Below, one piece after another: positions 2,760 through 61,904 of a stretch of 64,000 nt of DNA; the first letter of the stretch is position 1, and each line of letters starts with the position of its first letter. The translations under genes and the position numbers were made by a program. The notes beneath the pieces are model-generated. The model was not told where the DNA came from, made no database searches, and was given only the letters and a program-made list of their open reading frames with translations. The stretch lies in NCBI GenBank assembly GCA_030648265.1, contig JAUSHX010000028.1, forward strand, positions 249-64,248, given 5' to 3'. This DNA comes from a bacterium (GTDB taxonomy: Bacteria > Patescibacteriota > Minisyncoccia > Phycocordibacterales > UBA2100).

Positions 2760-3911
2760 ATGTCTTTCTCCCTCGGCGGTATTTCAAAATTCTTCAAGTC
2801 CTCATTCGGAGGAAGTTCCGAGGGGAGCATTATCGGCATTGACATCGGTGCGTCGTCCGCGAAAATTGTCCAGTTGCGCGCGTCCCGCGGGACGGCGATT
2901 CTTGAAACGTACGGAGAAATCGCTCTCGGGCCCTACGGAGGCCAGGCAATCGGCAAAGCGGTGAAACTGACTCCGGAAAAAATTGCCGAGGCGCTCAGCG
3001 ATCTCATGCGCGAGGCAAATGTGACCGCCCGTACTGGCGGGCTCTCCATACCCTTTTCTGCGAGTCTCGTGTCGGTGCTTGAAATGCCGAAAGTGGACAA
3101 AGATTCTCTAAAGAGAATGGTTCCGATAGAGGCGCGCAAATATATTCCGCTTCCCGTATCGGAAGTCACTCTTGATTGGTTCGTCATACCGCATGAGGAG
3201 CAGGGGGAGAGCGCGTTTGACCAGGTGGAGGCGCCCAAACCCGTTCACGCGAGAATGCAGGAAATCCTCCTCGTCGCCATACATAATGAAATCCTCCGGG
3301 ACTATCAGAAGATATCAGAGGCAACCGGGCTCAACGTGAGTTTCTACGAGATTGAGATTTTCAGCGCGACTCGTTCCTCAATGGGGCATGGCGCGGCGCC
3401 TGTCTTGGTTGTTGATTTGGGCGCGGCGACGACGAAGATGTATATTGTGGAGCGCGGGATTGTGCGCCTTACCCACCTGCTCACATCCGGCGGACAAAAC
3501 ATGACGGATACGCTGGCGCGCTCGCTCTCATGGGAATTTGAAAAAGCGGAGCGCGTGAAGAGGGAAATCGGACTTGTCAGTTCAACCGCGTACAGCACGG
3601 ATGAGAACGACCGGATAAAGACGGCATTGTTATCAACACTCTCCCGTGTGTTTTCTGAGATAGACCGAGTATTATTAAGCTACGGGCAGCGATATAACAA
3701 AAACGTGTCGAATGTCCTCTTGACTGGAGGAGGGGCATCGCTACCCGGCCTTGCGGAACATGCCAAGGGGTCGTTGCACGCGGAAGTTCTGATTGCGGAT
3801 CCTTTTTCGCGCTCGGAGGCGCCCGCATTTCTCCGAGATGTTCTGCGGCAGATTGGTCCGGGGTTTTCCGTTGCGGTGGGTCTTGCGTTGCGGAATTTGA
3901 AGCAAGGATAA
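2760..3911 (+). CDS. pilM: type IV pilus assembly protein PilM (actin-like ATPase fold)
   Basis: IGIDIGASSAKIVQL N-terminus, 383 aa, first gene of the pilus operon. Confidence 0.8.
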   Translation: MSFSLGGISKFFKSSFGGSSEGSIIGIDIGASSAKIVQLRASRGTAILETYGEIALGPYGGQAIGKAVKLTPEKIAEALSDLMREANVTARTGGLSIPFSASLVSVLEMPKVDKDSLKRMVPIEARKYIPLPVSEVTLDWFVIPHEEQGESAFDQVEAPKPVHARMQEILLVAIHNEILRDYQKISEATGLNVSFYEIEIFSATRSSMGHGAAPVLVVDLGAATTKMYIVERGIVRLTHLLTSGGQNMTDTLARSLSWEFEKAERVKREIGLVSSTAYSTDENDRIKTALLSTLSRVFSEIDRVLLSYGQRYNKNVSNVLLTGGGASLPGLAEHAKGSLHAEVLIADPFSRSEAPAFLRDVLRQIGPGFSVAVGLALRNLKQG

Positions 3912-4949: not shown

Positions 4950-5549
4950 ATGATTAAAATAATTATTTCCATAGTCAGTCTTGCGATTGCCGGCGGAGTG
5001 TTTTTCATATACACAGAATCTGCCTACAGCAACACGCAACTTCTCCAAACGAATATTGACCGGCATAACCAGGCGTTAGATAAGGCGGCGGAACTTAAGA
5101 AACTGCAGGAGACATTACTCTCGCGGTTCAATGCTTTCAACAAGGACGAAGTTGATAGGTTGCATAAGCTTCTGCCGGACCACGTGGACAATGTGCGCCT
5201 GATACTTGACCTTGACCATCTGGCAAGCACGTTCGGGATGGCGCTTCAGAATGTTGTCATAAGCAGTCCCGCAAGCGAAAGCGCGGGCACGACCGTCATA
5301 GGGTCTATTGGGGCAGGAAAGGAGAAGTATGATTCGCTGACGCTGAGATTTTCCACGCACGGCACGTATGCAAACTTTGTCGCATTCATGGAGAGTCTGG
5401 AATCAAGCTTGCGCATTGTTGACCTCGTAGCTTTGTCTCTCTCTCCGGAAGCGCCGGGTAGCGCCGCTAAGGGAACGAATACGCCGGCGGCCGCGTCTGA
5501 ATCGTCCTACAAATATGACATCACGGTCAGGACGTACTGGCTCAGATGA
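4950..5549 (+). CDS. pilO: type IV pilus assembly protein PilO-like
   Basis: N-terminal TM segment, a coiled-coil, a C-terminal domain, and operon position. Confidence 0.55.
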   Translation: MIKIIISIVSLAIAGGVFFIYTESAYSNTQLLQTNIDRHNQALDKAAELKKLQETLLSRFNAFNKDEVDRLHKLLPDHVDNVRLILDLDHLASTFGMALQNVVISSPASESAGTTVIGSIGAGKEKYDSLTLRFSTHGTYANFVAFMESLESSLRIVDLVALSLSPEAPGSAAKGTNTPAAASESSYKYDITVRTYWLR

Positions 5550-5562
5550 TTTGTATAATTGT

Positions 5563-5940
5563 ATGATGGACATCTTCTCAAAAAATAAGCTTGTGGCGGC
5601 CGCCGCCGCTCTCATCATTGCCGGCGCTGTATGGTATGGGTTTTCCGGCGGCTCGCCGCCGGCGCTGCTCGGAACCGAAAACGCAAACGGCGTGGTGAAT
5701 TCTGAAGACCAGGACCTTGTCGCGACGCTTCTCAAACTTCGGTCCGTAACGCTGACGGGGACAATATTTCAATCGCAGGTATTTCTCGGATTAAAAGATT
5801 TCAGCACAGAGATTACGCAAGAGCCGGTCGGAAGGGTGGATCCATTTGCTCCGATTCCGGTCGGTGTTTCTCAATCTGCCGCTGTTTCTGGGGCAAATAA
5901 TACAGGCGGCGCCGGCCTTTTTAACAAGCCGCAACCGTAA
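5563..5940 (+). CDS. small membrane-anchored pilus-operon protein (function unknown)
   Basis: MMDIFSKNKLVAAAAALIIAGAVWY TM anchor. Start chosen at 5563 within the 5515 ORF. Confidence 0.4.
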   Translation: MMDIFSKNKLVAAAAALIIAGAVWYGFSGGSPPALLGTENANGVVNSEDQDLVATLLKLRSVTLTGTIFQSQVFLGLKDFSTEITQEPVGRVDPFAPIPVGVSQSAAVSGANNTGGAGLFNKPQP

Positions 5941-7813: not shown

Positions 7814-8218
7814 ATGTCAGATAACAGCGAAAAACTAAGCATTCTACTGGTAGACGATGACAAGTTCCTCGTGGATATGTACAGCATGAAATTCACGGCT
7901 AAGGGCTACAATGTGAATGCATGCTTGTCGGCCGCGGATGCGCTTCAAGTGCTTCGCGACGGCTTTCTGCCGCAGGCAATAGTTTTTGATTTGGTTATGC
8001 CGGAGCACGACGGATTTTACTTTTTAAAAGCTCTCATTACCGAAAATCTAAAGCGCGGCGCATCGCTCATAGCGTTAACGAACGAGAGCAATGATGATAC
8101 AAAAGCAAAGATTACCGAACTTGGAGCGGACAGGGTCATTGTCAAGGCGACCATGATTCCGTCGGAAGTTGTGGGCACCGTGGAGGAGGAGATTGTCAAG
8201 AAGAAAAAGGAGCGCTAG
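7814..8218 (+). CDS. single-domain response regulator (REC, CheY/PilH-like)
   Basis: ILLVDDDKF ... FDLVMPEHDG receiver motifs. Confidence 0.75.
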   Translation: MSDNSEKLSILLVDDDKFLVDMYSMKFTAKGYNVNACLSAADALQVLRDGFLPQAIVFDLVMPEHDGFYFLKALITENLKRGASLIALTNESNDDTKAKITELGADRVIVKATMIPSEVVGTVEEEIVKKKKER

Positions 8219-8374
8219 CGACTATTTTCGCTTGACCCAGCACCTTTGGCTGGGTGTTGAAAAGTAAGCGTGTATGGGAATGCATAGGGTATACTTATAA
8301 ACGATATGTCGTATGTTGAACAAAAGGTGCTGGGCATAAGAATTTCTAACTCGCTCCGCTCATAACAAATTCTT
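8201..8374 (+). repeat. triple-hairpin intergenic element copy B
   Basis: The left arm overlaps the stop codon. Central IR ACCCAGCACCTTT (8235-8247) pairs with AAAGGTGCTGGG (8323-8334). The right arm, with AGAATTT/AAATTCT stem, ends at the pilT ATG. Confidence 0.8.
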
Positions 8375-9436
8375 ATGGACTATAGCGCCCAACTAAAAAA
8401 GTACATCAACGTGTTAGTGCACGAAGGCGCCTCGGACGCTCATTTCTCCGTCGGCGTGCACCCGACTATCCGCGTTGCGGGGAATCTCTCTCCCATGCTC
8501 AAAGAGCCGGTGTTGACAAAGGAAGACACTCTCGGTTTCTTGACTGCACTCACCACGCCACTGAATCAAAAGCGGTTTTTTTCAGAGCAGGAAATTGATT
8601 TTGCATACGAAACAGAGGACAAAGTCCGTTTTCGCGGGAATGCATTTTACCAGCGCGGCTCGGTGAGCATTGCACTCCGCCTAATCCCCCGAAAAATCAG
8701 CACTATCGCTGAATTGAACCTGCCGGAGATTCTTACGACTTTCGCCCGAAAGTCGCAAGGATTTTTTATCGTTGTCGGACCAGTTGGCCAAGGGAAAACG
8801 ACGACTCTGGCCTCTATGATAGAGCTCATCAACACCGAAAGAATGGAGCACATCGTCACCATTGAAGACCCGATAGAGTATGTTTTTGAGCCGAAGCTGT
8901 CGCTCGTGGAACAGCGCGAAGTACGCATAGACACGAAAGATTTTCCTTCCGCACTTGCCAGCGCGTTCCGCGAGGATATTGATGTGCTCATGGTTGGCGA
9001 GATGAGGGGGCCGGAGACCATGGCAGCCGCTGTCACAGCCGCCGAAACAGGGCACCTGGTTTTCTCTACGCTCCATACGAATGATGCCGCACAAACGATT
9101 GACCGCATTATTGATACATTTCCGGCTTCCCAGCAGGACCAGATACGGCTCCAGCTCGCGTCCTCCATGGCCGGTATTTTTTCGCAACGTCTAATCCCGC
9201 GCATTTCCGGGGGTCTTATTCCTGCGTTTGAACTTCTCATCAACAACAAAGCGGTATCAAACCTGATCCGCGAGAAGCGCACGCATGAATTAAATACGGT
9301 GATAGAGACCAACTCCGAAGAGGGAATGATTGATATGAACCGCTCGCTTGCGGAATTGGTGGCGCGCGGCGAAATCACGGTTGAGAGCGCATACCAGTAT
9401 TCTCTCAATCCGAATATGCTCCAAAAATTGTTATGA
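8375..9436 (+). CDS. pilT: twitching-motility retraction ATPase PilT
   Basis: 353 aa, Walker A GPVGQGKTTT, PilT-type C-terminus. Confidence 0.9.
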   Translation: MDYSAQLKKYINVLVHEGASDAHFSVGVHPTIRVAGNLSPMLKEPVLTKEDTLGFLTALTTPLNQKRFFSEQEIDFAYETEDKVRFRGNAFYQRGSVSIALRLIPRKISTIAELNLPEILTTFARKSQGFFIVVGPVGQGKTTTLASMIELINTERMEHIVTIEDPIEYVFEPKLSLVEQREVRIDTKDFPSALASAFREDIDVLMVGEMRGPETMAAAVTAAETGHLVFSTLHTNDAAQTIDRIIDTFPASQQDQIRLQLASSMAGIFSQRLIPRISGGLIPAFELLINNKAVSNLIREKRTHELNTVIETNSEEGMIDMNRSLAELVARGEITVESAYQYSLNPNMLQKLL

Positions 9437-21104: not shown

Positions 21105-21179
21105 AGCGGGGTGGAGCAGTAGTAGCTCGCAAGGCTCATAACCTTGAGGTCGCAGGTGCAATTCCTGTCCCCGCAACCA
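21105..21179 (+). tRNA. initiator tRNA-Met (CAT), CCA encoded
   Basis: AGCGGGGTGGAGCAG...GGCTCATAACC...CCCCGCAACCA. There is a 1:72 mismatch and three G-C pairs in the anticodon stem, as in bacterial tRNA-fMet. Confidence 0.85.
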
Positions 21180-21188
21180 CGTAAAACG

Positions 21189-21213
21189 AAAACCCCGCCA
21201 TTGGCGGGGTTTT
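21189..21213 (+). terminator. rho-independent terminator after tRNA-fMet
   Basis: AAAACCCCGCC-ATTG-GCGGGGTTTT. Confidence 0.7.
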
Positions 21214-21327
21214 CGTCACGTGGCTTGCGCCAGCAGGACATGTGTGAGCGAAGCGATTTACGTGGTTGAGCCGCGTGGTGAACGGAGTGAGCTTTACGCG
21301 GCAACTTATTCACGTAAGAATGTGTAC

Positions 21328-21591
21328 ATGTACCATGTTTACCTTTTAGAAAACCAAGACGACAAAAGTTGGTATATCGGCTACAGCGCCAATCTCAAAC
21401 AACGAATCGAGCGGCATCAAAAGGGTGATGGCGCTCGCACAACAAGTAGAAAGGAAAACTGGGATTTGATTTACTATGAAGCCTACAAAAACGAACAAGA
21501 TGCAAAAGGACGCGAGCGCTTCCTTAAAAGCGGGTCTGGCAGAAAGTTCCTAAAAAAACAGCTCGCACACTATTTGGTTAGTGAATTGTGA
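21328..21591 (+). CDS. stand-alone GIY-YIG nuclease (YhbQ/UPF0213-like)
   Basis: MYHVYLLEN..SWYIGYSANLKQRIERH..LIYYEAY..RERFLKSGSG. Confidence 0.75.
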   Translation: MYHVYLLENQDDKSWYIGYSANLKQRIERHQKGDGARTTSRKENWDLIYYEAYKNEQDAKGRERFLKSGSGRKFLKKQLAHYLVSEL

Positions 21592-21843
21592 CGCCATTTC
21601 CTGCCCCTGCAACACGGTTGTGACGCCAGGGAACCACATTCCCACAGGCGTCGAAAGTGCAAGAAGTCGGTACGGTACCGACTCCCATGGTCGGCTATAA
21701 AAGCGCATGAAACCACGCGAGTGGTTTTTGCGCATGCAATGTTCTCAACGTATTTTTGGTGCAATTCCAATTCTCGTGCAAATCAGTGATGTGTGTTGAA
21801 ATCGTGAAAATAGGCGTATTTCCTAAGTAATTCACGATTATGC

Positions 21844-22771: not shown

Positions 22772-23014
22772 TATTCGTGTAGTAAATACCCTCATAAACC
22801 CTTGCGTTCATCATATAAGCTTGTAGTTAGCTGTTAATCTACAAGCACAAGGAATGACGCAACCCCCGCTGTGAGCCCCGAGGCGAGCAGAGCGAGCTTT
22901 TCGGGGTGAGTCCAGACCTGTTCCGACGCCCCTAGTTGATAAGAAAATCCTTTAAAATAGAGCACGTAATATCGGCAGTATCAAAAAATTAAGATTTGTG
23001 GGATGATTTGATTG

Positions 23015-23880: not shown

Positions 23881-24501
23881 ATGAAAAGCGCTAAGAATCT
23901 ACTCGAGCAGCTCAAATCCTTGCCTTATTTCACCAAGGAGTCTGTTTTGCAGCTTAGCAGACCGTACGGCCTTGCAAAAACAACGGTTGACACATACATC
24001 AGCCGCTCCATGAAGCGCAAAGACATCCTTTCGCTAAGGAGGGGGCTATATGTATCTGCCGACTTTTACAACAAGAACAAGAGTGACACCTCGTATCTTT
24101 TCTTCCTTGCAAATGTTATCCGCAAGCCTTCCTATGTAAGTTCGTGGGCGGCGTTGCAGTACTATGGTCTTGCGACGGAAGCAATCCACACCATTACGTC
24201 CGTTACTTCCAAGGTGACGCGTACATACGTTACAAAGGCAGGCAACTTTGTCTACTCGTCGATAAAGGACGAACTATTTTCTGATTCAGTCTTGATAAAA
24301 GGAAAGTTCGACTTCTTTATCGCCACTCCGGCAAAGGCTTTGTTTGACCTGTTGTATGCTAAGACTCGTCAGTTTCAGGGAGTTGCGTTCGAGCATATTC
24401 CAAGACTCGTCGAAGAGCTACGCATCGATATTGATGAAATGGACAAATCAGAAAGAGAGAAATTTTATATGATGGTAAAGAAATATACGCACCATGGATA
24501 A
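23881..24501 (+). CDS. AbiEi-like antitoxin / transcriptional regulator
   Basis: wHTH-type N-terminus, SYVSSWAALQYYGL motif, 8-nt overlap with the downstream NTase gene. Confidence 0.5.
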   Translation: MKSAKNLLEQLKSLPYFTKESVLQLSRPYGLAKTTVDTYISRSMKRKDILSLRRGLYVSADFYNKNKSDTSYLFFLANVIRKPSYVSSWAALQYYGLATEAIHTITSVTSKVTRTYVTKAGNFVYSSIKDELFSDSVLIKGKFDFFIATPAKALFDLLYAKTRQFQGVAFEHIPRLVEELRIDIDEMDKSEREKFYMMVKKYTHHG

Positions 24502-25780
24502 TCAGATTCTCAGCGTGCTTAAGCAGAGACTCCAGGAAGTTGTCGCGTTGGGCGTTGCCGATGCCGAAACACAGCGCAATGCACTGAAAGAGGAGCTTCA
24601 GTACTATGTACTCGATTTTATCTATCACCACCAGGAATACAAAAGATGGGTGATGTACGGCGGTTCCGCGTTGCGTATTTGTCACGGCTTGGACCGAATG
24701 TCTGTCGACCTTGACTTCGAGGTTGAACATCCCATTACTGATGCATTTCTCACAGACCTACAGAATGAAATCGGAGAGCATTTTTCAAGCGCTTACAATG
24801 TTGGTTCGGAATCGTTGACGGTAAAAACCAATCATGGCCGTGGACTAACGCTCCGCTTTATCATCGGCGACGAACTGGGGTTTGGCCACACATCCAATCA
24901 GGTACATGTGAAGATAGACCTCAATAATTTCATGGCCCCCAAGACGGTTATCGAGCGCCGGCCAATCAACCACAACCAGCTTTCATTCGTTATCGTGACC
25001 TACAATATGTCAGCGCTCATGGCGAGCAAGATTGCCGCCATATTCTTGTGCGGTCGGCGGGGTATCGGAGAAGCGGTGTATGAAGAGAAAGGCAGAGACA
25101 TCTACGATTTACTCTGGTACATGGGCAAGAAGACTGTGCCTGACCTTGATTATCTGAACGCAAAGAAAGTTGAAGAAGCTAAAGACATCCGCACGCTTTT
25201 CACTAAGCTCACGATACAGATGAACAAAGTGAACAATGAAAATCTGAAGCAGGATCTCACGCCGCTTTTCACCAACCAGGGATTCATCACTCACTGGCTT
25301 GAAAACTGGCGCGAGAGTTTTTTCCACTTCATGGATGCTTATAAGATTCGTACCGTAACAAAGCTTGAAGGTGTGCGGGTGTTTGAGGATTTCAACTCCG
25401 ACGTATTTTCATTTGTGTACGCATACTCCACGGCAGAGGGAGATTCGGTGCGGGTTGCGTACCTCATCAGTGACTACTGGATGGACTTCAAGGACGGCGA
25501 TATCCCGACGGTCATAGATAACTTTGTAGACGAGCATATCGAATTTGCCGCAAATGGCGTATCAAGTCGACCCGCATCACAGAAAAAGCTCAAACAGTAC
25601 GCAACTATGTTTTATGCTAAAACCGAAGCGTATTTCAAAAAGACCGGACGCATCATGATAGGCGATACTATCGCGACAAAGCTCATCCGCATGACTGCCG
25701 ATAAACTGAACCAGAAAGAGCAGATTGTGCTCAACAAATCCGCCTTGTTGTCATGCGAGCTTGACGACCTGCTAAGATAG
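24494..25780 (+). CDS. AbiEii/AbiGii-family nucleotidyltransferase toxin with long C-terminal extension
   Basis: GGSALRICHGLDRMSVDLDFEV NTase motif. At 428 aa it is longer than the size I recall as typical for this family. Confidence 0.6.
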   Translation: MDNQILSVLKQRLQEVVALGVADAETQRNALKEELQYYVLDFIYHHQEYKRWVMYGGSALRICHGLDRMSVDLDFEVEHPITDAFLTDLQNEIGEHFSSAYNVGSESLTVKTNHGRGLTLRFIIGDELGFGHTSNQVHVKIDLNNFMAPKTVIERRPINHNQLSFVIVTYNMSALMASKIAAIFLCGRRGIGEAVYEEKGRDIYDLLWYMGKKTVPDLDYLNAKKVEEAKDIRTLFTKLTIQMNKVNNENLKQDLTPLFTNQGFITHWLENWRESFFHFMDAYKIRTVTKLEGVRVFEDFNSDVFSFVYAYSTAEGDSVRVAYLISDYWMDFKDGDIPTVIDNFVDEHIEFAANGVSSRPASQKKLKQYATMFYAKTEAYFKKTGRIMIGDTIATKLIRMTADKLNQKEQIVLNKSALLSCELDDLLR

Positions 25781-25785
25781 AAGGT

Positions 25786-25887
25786 ATGCGCTACACACTT
25801 TTTGAACAACTGAAGAAGGTCTTGGAAAAGGACGAGCGATTGGTGGCCGAGGGGGAATTAAATCGAGCGACATTCTCACATTCTTGA
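25786..25887 (+). pseudogene. 33-codon ORF stub truncated by the first palindrome
   Basis: MRYTLFEQLKKVLEKDERLVAEGELNR.. then a stop inside hairpin 1. The resemblance to N-termini of some RM-type proteins comes from memory only. Confidence 0.25.
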
Positions 25888-26006
25888 GAATGTGAGAATG
25901 TCGTGGGAGGGGGAGAATCTATTCTAGTATTTTGCAAAATACTAGAATAGATTGGGAAGGGCGACGGGGCGGGTCATTTCAATGTTTTGCAAAACATTAG
26001 AATGAC
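25869..26006. repeat. array of three AT-rich palindromes separated by G-tracts
   Basis: Hairpin 1 at 25869-25902 (15-bp stem), hairpin 2 at 25916-25953 (perfect 38-nt palindrome), hairpin 3 at 25973-26006 (2 mismatches). The linkers include GGGAAGGGCGACGGGGCGGG. Confidence 0.85.
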
Positions 26007-26057
26007 GGGGGATAGAAAATAACGGGGGGGAGGGATAGGGAAAAAGGAACATTATTA

Positions 26058-26421
26058 CGCTTAATAATCGTTTGACACCTGTTTCTGTGCCTGTTGCCCG
26101 ACTACGCTGGAGCTCCGCTGGACCGTCTACAGGTGCCTATCATGACCGATAGGCCTGCGATTTGTATCCACGCTACGCGCGGACAAATCGGGAGCCTGAC
26201 ACCTGGTGTTTGTTTACGTCGAAACGGTACCGTCTACAGGCGAATTAACAAATTCGTGGCTCGGCCATAAACTTTGCTGACCGATAGACTCCATTTCGAC
26301 GCGATCTTTACTGGCGACGTAGAGCGAGTGTGATGCGGAAGCGCAGCTTCCGCATCACCGAGCCGAGGAGTCAGAAACCGTCAGCCGGTTTTCGCTTAAT
26401 AATCGCCTACCACCTGCTTCT
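26058..26421 (+). repeat. non-coding segment bounded by 29-nt imperfect direct repeats with internal repeated boxes
   Basis: CGCTTAATAATCG..ACCTG.TTCT occurs at 26058-26086 and 26393-26421. Inside, TGACACCTG, CCGTCTACAGG and TGACCGATAG each occur twice. Confidence 0.6.
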
Positions 26422-26478
26422 TTTGAGGAGTACAATGAGCCCTAACGTTTTTGAGTACTGAATTTATAAACGCAGAAT

Positions 26479-27072
26479 ATGAATCAAATTGTCTACATCT
26501 TAATAAATGAGTCTATGCCTGAATTTGTGAAGATAGGCTTTACTCATGGTGATGTAAACGAAAGAATCAGGCAGTTAGATCGGACAGGCGTACCTCTTCC
26601 GTTTGAAGTTTACTACGCTGCAACAGTGGAAGACGCAGAAAAAGAAGAAAAATGGTTGCATTCTATTTTTGCTGATCGTCGGGCACGGGATAGCCGAGAA
26701 TTTTTCAAGATGAATCCTGAATATGCGGCGCTTGCATTAAAACGAGTAGAAATTAGAGAAACTAAGATTTATAGCGTACTGACCCCAGAACAGGAAAAGG
26801 AAGTCGATCAAGTAAAAGAAAGACGCTCAAGATTTCATTTCGCACAGTACGGAATTCCAGTCGGATCTAAACTTACTTTTACGAGAGATTCGGATATTGT
26901 TGCCGAAGTAGTAGAAAACGACAAAATAAAGATTGGAGACAAGGTTGATTTTCTATCAAATGTGGCCCGTGATTTATTGGGATACAGGCGAAGACCTCAA
27001 GGCACTTTGTATTTTGAATTTGAGGGCGAGATCTTAGATGATAGACGCAGAAGAATGGAGGAAGAAGATTAG
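26479..27072 (+). CDS. T5orf172 / GIY-YIG-like domain protein
   Basis: VYILINESMPEFVKIGFT...ERIRQL...PLPFEVYY...EKWLHSIF...REFF pattern. Confidence 0.65.
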   Translation: MNQIVYILINESMPEFVKIGFTHGDVNERIRQLDRTGVPLPFEVYYAATVEDAEKEEKWLHSIFADRRARDSREFFKMNPEYAALALKRVEIRETKIYSVLTPEQEKEVDQVKERRSRFHFAQYGIPVGSKLTFTRDSDIVAEVVENDKIKIGDKVDFLSNVARDLLGYRRRPQGTLYFEFEGEILDDRRRRMEEED

Positions 27073-27173
27073 ACAGGAGGCGGCGGCGCGGCAGGTTTCC
27101 CGGAAATGAGGATTTGTGGGATGATGTTCTGGCGATGGTAAACAATGGACTGGATGTTGCAACAAGGATTCAG

Positions 27174-35523: not shown

Positions 35524-35599
35524 TTTCCGGTACGGTACCGCTCGGCCTCTTCGGCCTTCGAAATGCGCCGAAAGTCGTCGAATACTCTTTGAACTGACC

Positions 35600-35721
35600 C
35601 ATACCGACAGGCATCGCTCGGGCGTACTATAGAGAGGTGAAAGAACCTTTGGTTTGCTTACTGGGTGGGGTAGGGTACCGCCAAGGGCAACAGAAAAACC
35701 GCCCGTATGGCGGTTTTTCTG
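35600..35721 (+). promoter_or_regulatory. possible T-box-like leader plus terminator upstream of ilvD
   Basis: AGAGAGGTGAAAG (35631-35643) and CTGGGTGGGGTAGGGTACCGCC (35661-35682, compare the T-box GGGTGGTACCGCG). The terminator CAGAAAAACCGCC-CGTAT-GGCGGTTTTTCTG (35691-35721) has a 3' strand that can alternatively pair with ACCGCC of the box. Confidence 0.3.
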
Positions 35722-61832: not shown

Positions 61833-61866
61833 ATATCTGCAGCCTTAAACCTACCGAAAACATTCT

Positions 61867-61904
61867 CATATTCTTAAGAATATGAGAATGTTTTTAGACC
61901 AAAT
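61867..61904. repeat. perfect 38-nt palindrome related to hairpin 1 of the 25.9-kb array
   Basis: AAAACATTCTCATATTCTT/AAGAATATGAGAATGTTTT compared with GACATTCTCACATTC..GAATGTGAGAATGTC. Confidence 0.85.

Follow-up and report, generated by a model that had tools for sequence, protein, structure and literature searches.

A non-coding segment of ~365 bp, at positions 26055–26421 of the 64,000-nucleotide stretch of DNA analyzed here (the window), carries two successive sets of repeated sequence boxes, and these repeats are real and non-random. The segment is probably an island-junction or intergenic repeat remnant, decayed but partly constrained. The reading that we favor, tentatively and at somewhat below even odds, is that it consists of two tandem, diverged copies of a boundary element, which would mark the junction between accreted gene cassettes and would now serve as a terminator and spacer. 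By itself, the segment matters little, being an orphan spacer of a single genome. Its value is as a pointer to a variable CPR island that is linked to tRNA-Met and carries an undescribed family of elements, E1 and E2, at its edges and junctions. This family, together with the cassette organization beside tRNA-Met, is a more interesting by-product of the analysis than the segment.

The host resembles Kaiserbacteria among the CPR bacteria, judged by its GatA, which has 84%–85% identity to proteins of Ca. Kaiserbacteria. The island spans 14 kb (21.7–35.5 kb) between tRNA-Met (21105) and ilvD (35773), and its defense-type genes are Fic, RadC, AbiE, methylases, and a SocA-type antitoxin. The segment occupies the right half of a 698-nt intergenic gap in this island. 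AbiEi/AbiEii (23881–25780) lie to the left of the gap, and a T5orf172/GIY-YIG-like gene (26479–27072) lies to its right, followed by a minus-strand HNH gene and then by a 970-aa HTH-N4/N6-C5 methylase, the HTH domain of which is N-terminal. PADLOC matched the entire T5orf172 protein to PDC-S57, a candidate family of single-gene defense systems (E = 2e-60). No integrase, other recombinase, rep, or par gene was found in the island (21–36 kb). Relatives have LigA-GatC-GatA-tRNA-Met in common and diverge thereafter: the relatives L096–L103 are without this part of the island, and the contigs of closer relatives (GatA 82%–85%) stop before the part that holds the segment or differ in it.

The segment begins and ends with copies of a 32-nt direct repeat, which are identical at 26 of 32 positions (81%), enclose 335 bp, and share an exact 13-nt core, CGCTTAATAATCG. 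The repeat with 24 of 29 identical positions that a preliminary description of this DNA had reported at 26058–26086 is part of this longer one. Three boxes (A, B, and C) are duplicated in two successive units, as that description had also claimed, and the T5orf172 ATG lies 57 nt downstream of the second repeat copy. The features of the segment are as follows.

26055–26086, plus strand: direct repeat copy 1, which includes box A of unit 1 and lies within the imperfect palindrome AACATTATT-ACGCTT-AATAATCGTT
26073–26081 (unit 1) and 26197–26205 (unit 2), plus strand: box A (TGACACCTG, 9 nt), exact duplicate
26122–26133 (unit 1) and 26229–26240 (unit 2), plus strand: box B (ACCGTCTACAGG, 12 nt), exact duplicate
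26143–26152 (unit 1) and 26278–26287 (unit 2), plus strand: box C (TGACCGATAG, 10 nt), exact duplicate
26158–26190, plus strand: 8-bp hairpin (CGATTTGT/ACAAATCG) with a 17-nt loop, which closes unit 1
26217–26301, plus strand: core of unit 2, with an 11-bp long-range helix (arms 26217–26227 and 26291–26301)
26330–26358, no strand assigned: perfect 13-bp hairpin with a 3-nt loop (arms GTGATGCGGAAGC/GCTTCCGCATCAC; -23.3 kcal/mol)
26374–26392, plus strand: weak intrinsic-terminator-like hairpin with A-tract, stem, and T-tract (-6.5 kcal/mol)
26390–26421, plus strand: direct repeat copy 2, which opens a truncated third unit and has a degenerate box A (TACCACCTG) at 26408–26416

Each box is present in exactly two copies, and the order of the boxes is kept in both units. 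In the 64-kb window, the repeat core and box B had two matches each at ≤1 mismatch (0.12 and 0.15 expected, respectively), and box C had two exact matches (0.08 expected). When the 367-nt segment was shuffled 5000 times, the probability of obtaining at least four exact direct repeats of at least 9 nt was 0.0002. The boxes are thus more frequent than chance allows; a frequency as expected by chance was the outcome that the preliminary description had weighed against its own proposal. The distance from copy to copy is 124, 107, and 135 nt for boxes A, B, and C, respectively. The spacers have different lengths in unit 1 and unit 2 (40 vs 23 nt between boxes A and B, and 9 vs 37 nt between boxes B and C), and no similarity was detectable between the spacers of the two units, whereas the box positions are identical at 31 of 31. 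Because the identical boxes stand beside spacers that cannot be aligned, the boxes appear to be under current or recent constraint; decay alone does not account for the 31 identical positions.

Box C of unit 1 lies inside a local hairpin (26135–26154), and the long-range helix of unit 2 encloses box B, two small hairpins, and box C. The strong hairpin that had been noted after the two units proved to be longer than described, with perfect arms of 13 bp. The terminator-like element that had been placed behind it is present at 26374–26392, but it is weak and did not pass the terminator scan. Local terminators share its A-tract/stem/T-tract style, and a spacer or terminator role of the segment between the two modules is therefore plausible.

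There is no credible ORF in the segment, in agreement with the preliminary description. Each of the six frames is interrupted by stops, and no ORF exceeds 58 aa, the length of one that opens with TTG. Neither 124 nor 107 nt, the copy-to-copy distances of boxes A and B, is divisible by 3, and the reading frame of box B differs between units 1 and 2. A 64-aa stop-free stretch of the segment had no relative among 5.8 billion predicted proteins, and tblastn of its six frames against all loci returned nothing. A coding or pseudogene origin was rejected on account of the stops, the frame shift of box B, and the empty protein searches. At the nucleotide level, a distant-mode blastn search of phage and plasmid collections with the 698-nt gap as query also returned nothing. 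Exact-pattern scans for boxes B and C together gave no match in viral contigs (IMG/VR) or in genome contigs (GTDB species representatives), and a scan for the repeat core gave none in viral contigs (IMG/VR). Three matches to boxes A and B in JGI metagenome contigs were shown to be chance, and a literature search for sequence strings of the segment retrieved unrelated primers only. One Logan assembly also contains this organism, and its contig breaks 150 bp to the left of the segment, at a set of palindromes (25868–26006). The segment is known from one genome only and has no homologue in the collections searched.

The elements with which the segment was compared flank the island. Both carry a palindrome, P (GGTACGGTACCG), a degenerate form of which may be present in unit 2.

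21595–21740, plus strand: E1, which adjoins the 3′ end of tRNA-Met and forms the left island boundary; P at 21669–21680
35526–35694, plus strand: E2, ~165 nt, which forms the right island boundary; P at 35529 and 35669
26221–26234, plus strand: candidate degenerate P (GAAACGGTACCGTC, 11 of 14 vs GGTACGGTACCGCC), which overlaps box B of unit 2

E1 contains a hairpin, GCGTCGAAA, P, a second hairpin, and a terminator. In its hairpin GACGCC/GGCGTC, pairing survives C-to-U changes by way of G-U pairs, and does so only on the plus strand. E1 follows the 3′ end of tRNA-Met in three genomes (5480–5640 in L097 and 11830–11950 in L099). E2 runs from P through the core CTTTGAACTGACCCATACCGACAGG to a second P with AAGGGCAAC and then to a strong intrinsic terminator; its invariant core is CTTTGAAMTGACCCRTAYCGACAGG. 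The E2 of the window is 82% identical to a copy in L097, where copies lie at 8675–8841 and 8118–8225; L102 has a copy on the minus strand, at 1727–1895. In three genomes, E2 is located at the edges of variable gene cassettes, and it was also found in an IMG/VR contig beside a transposase and a methylase. In L097, P/E2 copies at 5552, 8121, 8679, and 8816 delimit a TPR cassette and a ParDE cassette; the copies that separate these cassettes are E2a, which is partial, and E2b, which is full.

Across genomes with different cargo, E1 and E2 have ~70%–85% nucleotide identity. The terminators after them vary in sequence among genomes, and their position is kept. Neither element is in Rfam, and the consensus fold of E2 is weak (-14 kcal/mol, with little covariation). 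At ≤3 mismatches, P has nine matches in the 64-kb window against 2.6 expected, and these include 21669, 35529, 35669, and 26221. E2 may be a small RNA or a site of recombination.

Unit 2 of the segment resembles E2 at the level of short motifs. From the palindrome to the core, the region 26223–26290 is colinear with E2, and the alignment reads ACGGTACCG ... CAGGC ... AAATTCG ... CTTTG-CTGACC.ATA-GAC. In this alignment, box B appears to match the 3′ half of P followed by TCTA-CAGG, and box C appears to match the first part of the E2 core, TGACC(C/G)ATA, with CTTTG before it. In unit 2, CTTTG-CTGACCGATAGAC lies 37 nt downstream of the palindrome, compared to about 45 nt for the core in E2. About 14 of the first 17 core positions are kept, and the CGACAGG part is missing. 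The equivalent of P in unit 1 is GGACCGTC only. Box A of unit 1 resembles TGACGCCAG of E1 at 7 of 9 positions, with the same upstream distance of 40 nt, and the succession of GCGTCGAAA and CGGTACCG was found in E1 and unit 2 only.

Smith–Waterman alignment of unit 2 gave z = 2.2–4.7 (p = 0.001–0.04) against four E2 copies and p = 0.014 against E1 of the same genome, and colinear k-mer chains agreed (p = 0.005 against E2_W); all these p-values are uncorrected across about a dozen comparisons. No Smith–Waterman signal was obtained with the controls (four intergenic pieces), with unit 1 alone, or with the tail against E1/E2. The nhmmer profiles of E1 and E2 did not match the units of the segment at E ≤ 10, and the 5′-E2 profile gave only a reverse-strand, core-like match at 25967–25984. 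Unit 2 shares with E2 the position at a cassette boundary, the plus-strand orientation, and the terminator that follows. On these sequence comparisons, the kinship of unit 2 with E2 is probable but not established.

According to the boundary-element reading, the segment would comprise two copies and the start of a third of a lineage-specific family of island-boundary elements, all strongly diverged. The junction that it marks would join the RadC-AbiEi/AbiEii cassette on the left and the T5orf172(PDC-S57)-HNH-methylases cassette on the right. Cassettes may have been added by recombination at or near boundary elements, each addition leaving a partial copy of the element behind, and the segment would be such a leftover that was duplicated once. 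The boxes would have stayed identical as the blocks that are kept by the family, either as sites for recombination proteins or as RNA motifs. At present, the segment would act as a spacer that includes a hairpin and a weak terminator, such that transcription from the abiE side would end before the promoter region of T5orf172. From genome to genome, toxin-antitoxin and restriction-type cassettes are exchanged in this island, with no integrase to be seen. If E1 and E2 are a recombination platform or a small-RNA family, they would help to explain how defense islands are assembled in tiny CPR genomes.

Among known systems, internal remnants of att sites or boundary repeats in tandemly accreted islands at tRNA genes share several traits with this locus: the island lies beside a tRNA gene, conserved elements surround variable cargo, partial boundary copies stand between cassettes (E2a in L097, and unit 2 here), and the modules are bounded by short direct repeats. 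Direct repeats around an insert, as in attL/attR pairs, are present (32 nt, 81%, with the 13-nt exact core), whereas a cognate integrase or recombinase gene was not found in 21–36 kb. The integrase gene of such islands is absent here. Moreover, the repeated element is not a tRNA 3′ end, but the ~165-nt element with terminal GGTACGGTACCG palindromes, and the similarity of the segment to this element is weak.

A possible but rather doubtful alternative is that the segment encodes one or two small RNAs on the plus strand, paralogues of the E2 type for which the 13-bp hairpin together with the weak terminator would form the end; to the same doubtful degree, the boxes would then be conserved single-stranded or protein-binding motifs. 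The intrinsic terminators kept in position after both E1 and E2, and the C-to-U changes in the E1 hairpin that preserve pairing on the plus strand only, are consistent with this explanation. So are the G+C content of the segment, at 56% compared to 40%–47% in its neighbors, and the invariant boxes with spacers of variable length, a pattern typical of RNA families. The segment as a whole also folds better than shuffled sequences (plus strand, z = -3.5; minus strand, z = -4.9). However, sliding windows over the two units, which are the box-bearing part, gave z of -0.6 to -2.8 only, and the fold signal was traced to the 13-bp hairpin and to the 11-bp long-range helix in unit 2.

The two units cannot take the same fold. 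The MFE architecture of unit 2 consists of the closing helix, a 5-bp helix between boxes B and C, and inner hairpins; when this fold was imposed on unit 1, the energy was 12–20 kcal/mol above the MFE of unit 1 itself. The boxes are therefore not explained by a common fold. Rfam 15 returned nothing for the whole window at gathering thresholds or for the segment region at E ≤ 10. The best match in 25600–26700 was Ms_IGR-8 (20.3 bits vs a threshold of 44, E = 0.1), and it spans the 13-bp hairpin only. The promoter scan showed no convincing promoter, the empty homologue searches left no test set for covariation, and the weak consensus structure of E2 further argues against a small RNA. The structured non-coding RNA that the preliminary description had suggested is thus not supported for the box region, given the missing Rfam match, the weak z-scores, and the lack of a common fold; a small transcript that ends at the hairpin/terminator is possible. 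A tandem riboswitch or other cis-regulatory leader was rejected because the two units do not have the same conserved fold. A hammerhead-like succession, CUGACAC...GAAAC...GUC, was ruled out by eye, as the essential G8 and A9 positions do not fit.

It is unlikely that the boxes and the core of the repeat function as DNA sites at present, either as operators through which a regulator would control the T5orf172/methylase module or as sites for a recombinase acting in trans. In the recombinase version, which we likewise consider unlikely, the 335 bp between the direct repeats would be excisable. Boxes that are exact while the spacers are unrelated would suit protein binding, and the adjacent methylase with its N-terminal HTH domain would suit a regulator. 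Repeat copy 1 lies in a palindrome with arms of 9–10 bp and a 6-bp spacer, and this is the layout of tyrosine-recombinase core sites. A second direct repeat, of 22 nt with 20 of 22 positions identical, occurs at 22986–23007, just upstream of radC, and at 27104–27125, which is 32 nt past the T5orf172 stop codon. Considering this repeat together with that of the segment, the T5orf172 cassette is abutted on both sides by second repeat copies. On the other hand, three different boxes with irregular spacing are hard to fit to a rigid protein–DNA array, no recombinase, rep, or par gene was found nearby, and the boxes are absent from other T5orf172/methylase loci. Of the iteron-like array that had been proposed earlier, the non-random and apparently constrained nature of the boxes held, but the three different sequences, the irregular spacing, and the lack of a rep gene and of origin features did not fit. 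Plasmid-type iterons, in which one sequence of 17–22 bp recurs several times at regular spacing beside a rep gene and an AT-rich/DnaA-box region, were rejected (three different boxes, each twice, irregularly spaced, with the rep gene absent).

A more far-reaching explanation, which we regard as improbable, is that E1, E2, and the box units belong to an unrecognized, integron-like cassette-accretion system, either as its recombination sites or as small RNAs of a guide-like or structural kind. In such a system, the integrase would not be encoded in cis, the site would lie next to tRNA-Met in Kaiserbacteria-like CPR bacteria, and, with equally low probability, the segment would be a live internal site, with its invariant boxes recognized by the machinery. 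The likeness to integron arrays, in which attC sites lie between promoterless cassettes, is that cassettes are parted by imperfect, partly palindromic elements of ~100–170 nt with conserved blocks and variable spacers. In contrast to integrons, IntI, attI, and R″-L″/L′-R′ core sites (GTTRRRY) are absent here, and the cassettes consist of several genes with their own terminators.

That the segment is a remnant of a mobile element that brought T5orf172 is very improbable and largely refuted. The T5orf172 protein has hundreds of homologues with 80%–89% identity in CPR bacteria, Caldatribacteriota, and Woesearchaeota, and the gene has 77%–81% nucleotide identity across distant phyla. By this comparison, the T5orf172 gene is clearly horizontally mobile, and repeat copy 2 lies only 57 nt upstream of its start. 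However, in five independent contexts that were compared (L002, L003, L006, L012, and L014), nucleotide homology was essentially confined to the gene: it begins 1 nt before the ATG and stops at the stop codon or within about 25 nt of it. The upstream regions of these homologues are 4–250 nt long and unrelated, and the boxes and the direct repeat are absent from all five contexts. The segment, as far as these alignments tell, is not a component of the T5orf172 gene. Co-occurrence with homologous T5orf172 genes had been suggested as a check, and no conservation was found next to them, so the link to T5orf172 fails. Of the earlier suggestion that an inserted element had delivered this gene, only the word "remnant" still fits. 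In the five contexts, T5orf172 lies directly upstream of DNA methylases or restriction-modification genes, and in L002–L014 its neighbors are always DNA methylase or restriction genes, and a 68-aa HTH gene sometimes precedes it.

A link to the AbiE genes was not found either, as blastn, nhmmer, and box searches detected no similarity to the segment at 80 AbiEii loci of GTDB genomes. In a Zixibacteria genome (L044), AbiEi/AbiEii form an insertion between the copies of a ~75-bp duplication (2935–3010 and 5850–5922), and the duplicated sequence comes from a protein-coding gene, of which it is the 3′ end. AbiE modules thus move as cassettes with long direct repeats. An apparent match to the E2 core beside abiE in L044 was this duplicated protein-coding 3′ end and is unrelated to E2.

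That the repeats are chance matches or an assembly artifact is hardly credible, as the probability of 0.0002 for four exact repeats of at least 9 nt speaks against chance and repeats of 9–13 nt would be too short for de Bruijn graph loops, even though the contig comes from a MAG and the Logan assembly, made independently from this sample, is interrupted at the neighboring palindromes.

The segment was also compared with other repeat classes. Like BIMEs/REP clusters and the pneumococcal BOX, it is non-coding and modular, lies between convergent or tandem genes, contains hairpins and conserved boxes with variable linkers, and has three REP-like palindromes immediately to its left (25868–26006). 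Unlike them, it is of low copy number, as the boxes are unique in the 64 kb and absent from the collections searched, and no RAYT-type transposase gene was seen here. The order of tandem units, hairpin/terminator, and nuclease-family gene is reminiscent of type III toxin-antitoxin systems (ToxI-like). However, the units here, of 124 and ~195 nt, are for the most part unrelated, compared to the near-identical ~36-nt repeats of ToxI, and the downstream gene is GIY-YIG/T5orf172 (PDC-S57) and not a ToxN/AbiQ endoribonuclease, with homologues that have no array. A type III antitoxin array was rejected because the spacers are unrelated and near-identical short repeats are absent. A MITE or IS insertion was rejected as well, since the inner ends of the 335 bp have no inverted repeat and the 32-nt imperfect duplication is not IS-like. 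A DGR was rejected on the absence of adenine-specific mismatches and of a reverse transcriptase, and an oriT or sso on the absence of rep and relaxase genes.

The palindromes in the left half of the gap (25868–26006) are three perfect, AT-rich palindromes with 16–19-bp arms; the linkers between them are rich in G and contain about eight GGA motifs. Their fold signal (z = -5 to -13) far exceeds any other in the area, and a related palindrome, followed by a T-run, is located at 61860–61891. These AT-rich palindromes may be REP-like repeats or a terminator family. A 33-codon ORF, MRYTLFEQLKKVLEKDERLVAEGELNRATFSHS (25786–25887), begins right after abiEii and enters the first palindrome; it has no Pfam match and presumably resembles the N-terminus of a methylase or restriction gene. 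On the other side of the segment lies an upstream ORF of eight codons, MSPNVFEY (26435–26461), the ribosome-binding site of which, GAGGAG, is perfect. This ORF stops 17 nt upstream of the start codon of T5orf172, and that start codon has no Shine–Dalgarno sequence. The T5orf172 genes of the window and of L002–L014 never have such a sequence. Translational coupling of the MSPNVFEY ORF with T5orf172 is possible.

At the left edge of the island, the tRNA-Met of relatives contains a group I intron in its anticodon loop (Rfam RF00028, 54.8 bits), which lies at 5221–5422 inside the tRNA-Met (5190–5498) of L097 and at ~11534–11810 of L099. The tRNA-Met copy of the window (21105–21179) is intron-less. 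A small GIY-YIG gene (21328–21591; Pfam E = 1e-17) is located between this tRNA-Met and E1, and it is bracketed by the tRNA 3′ end (21157–21181) and a second copy thereof (21586–21610). The stretch 21173–21259, which follows the tRNA in the window, is placed after E2 in L097, and this shifted stretch suggests that the block from E1 to E2 moved as a unit.
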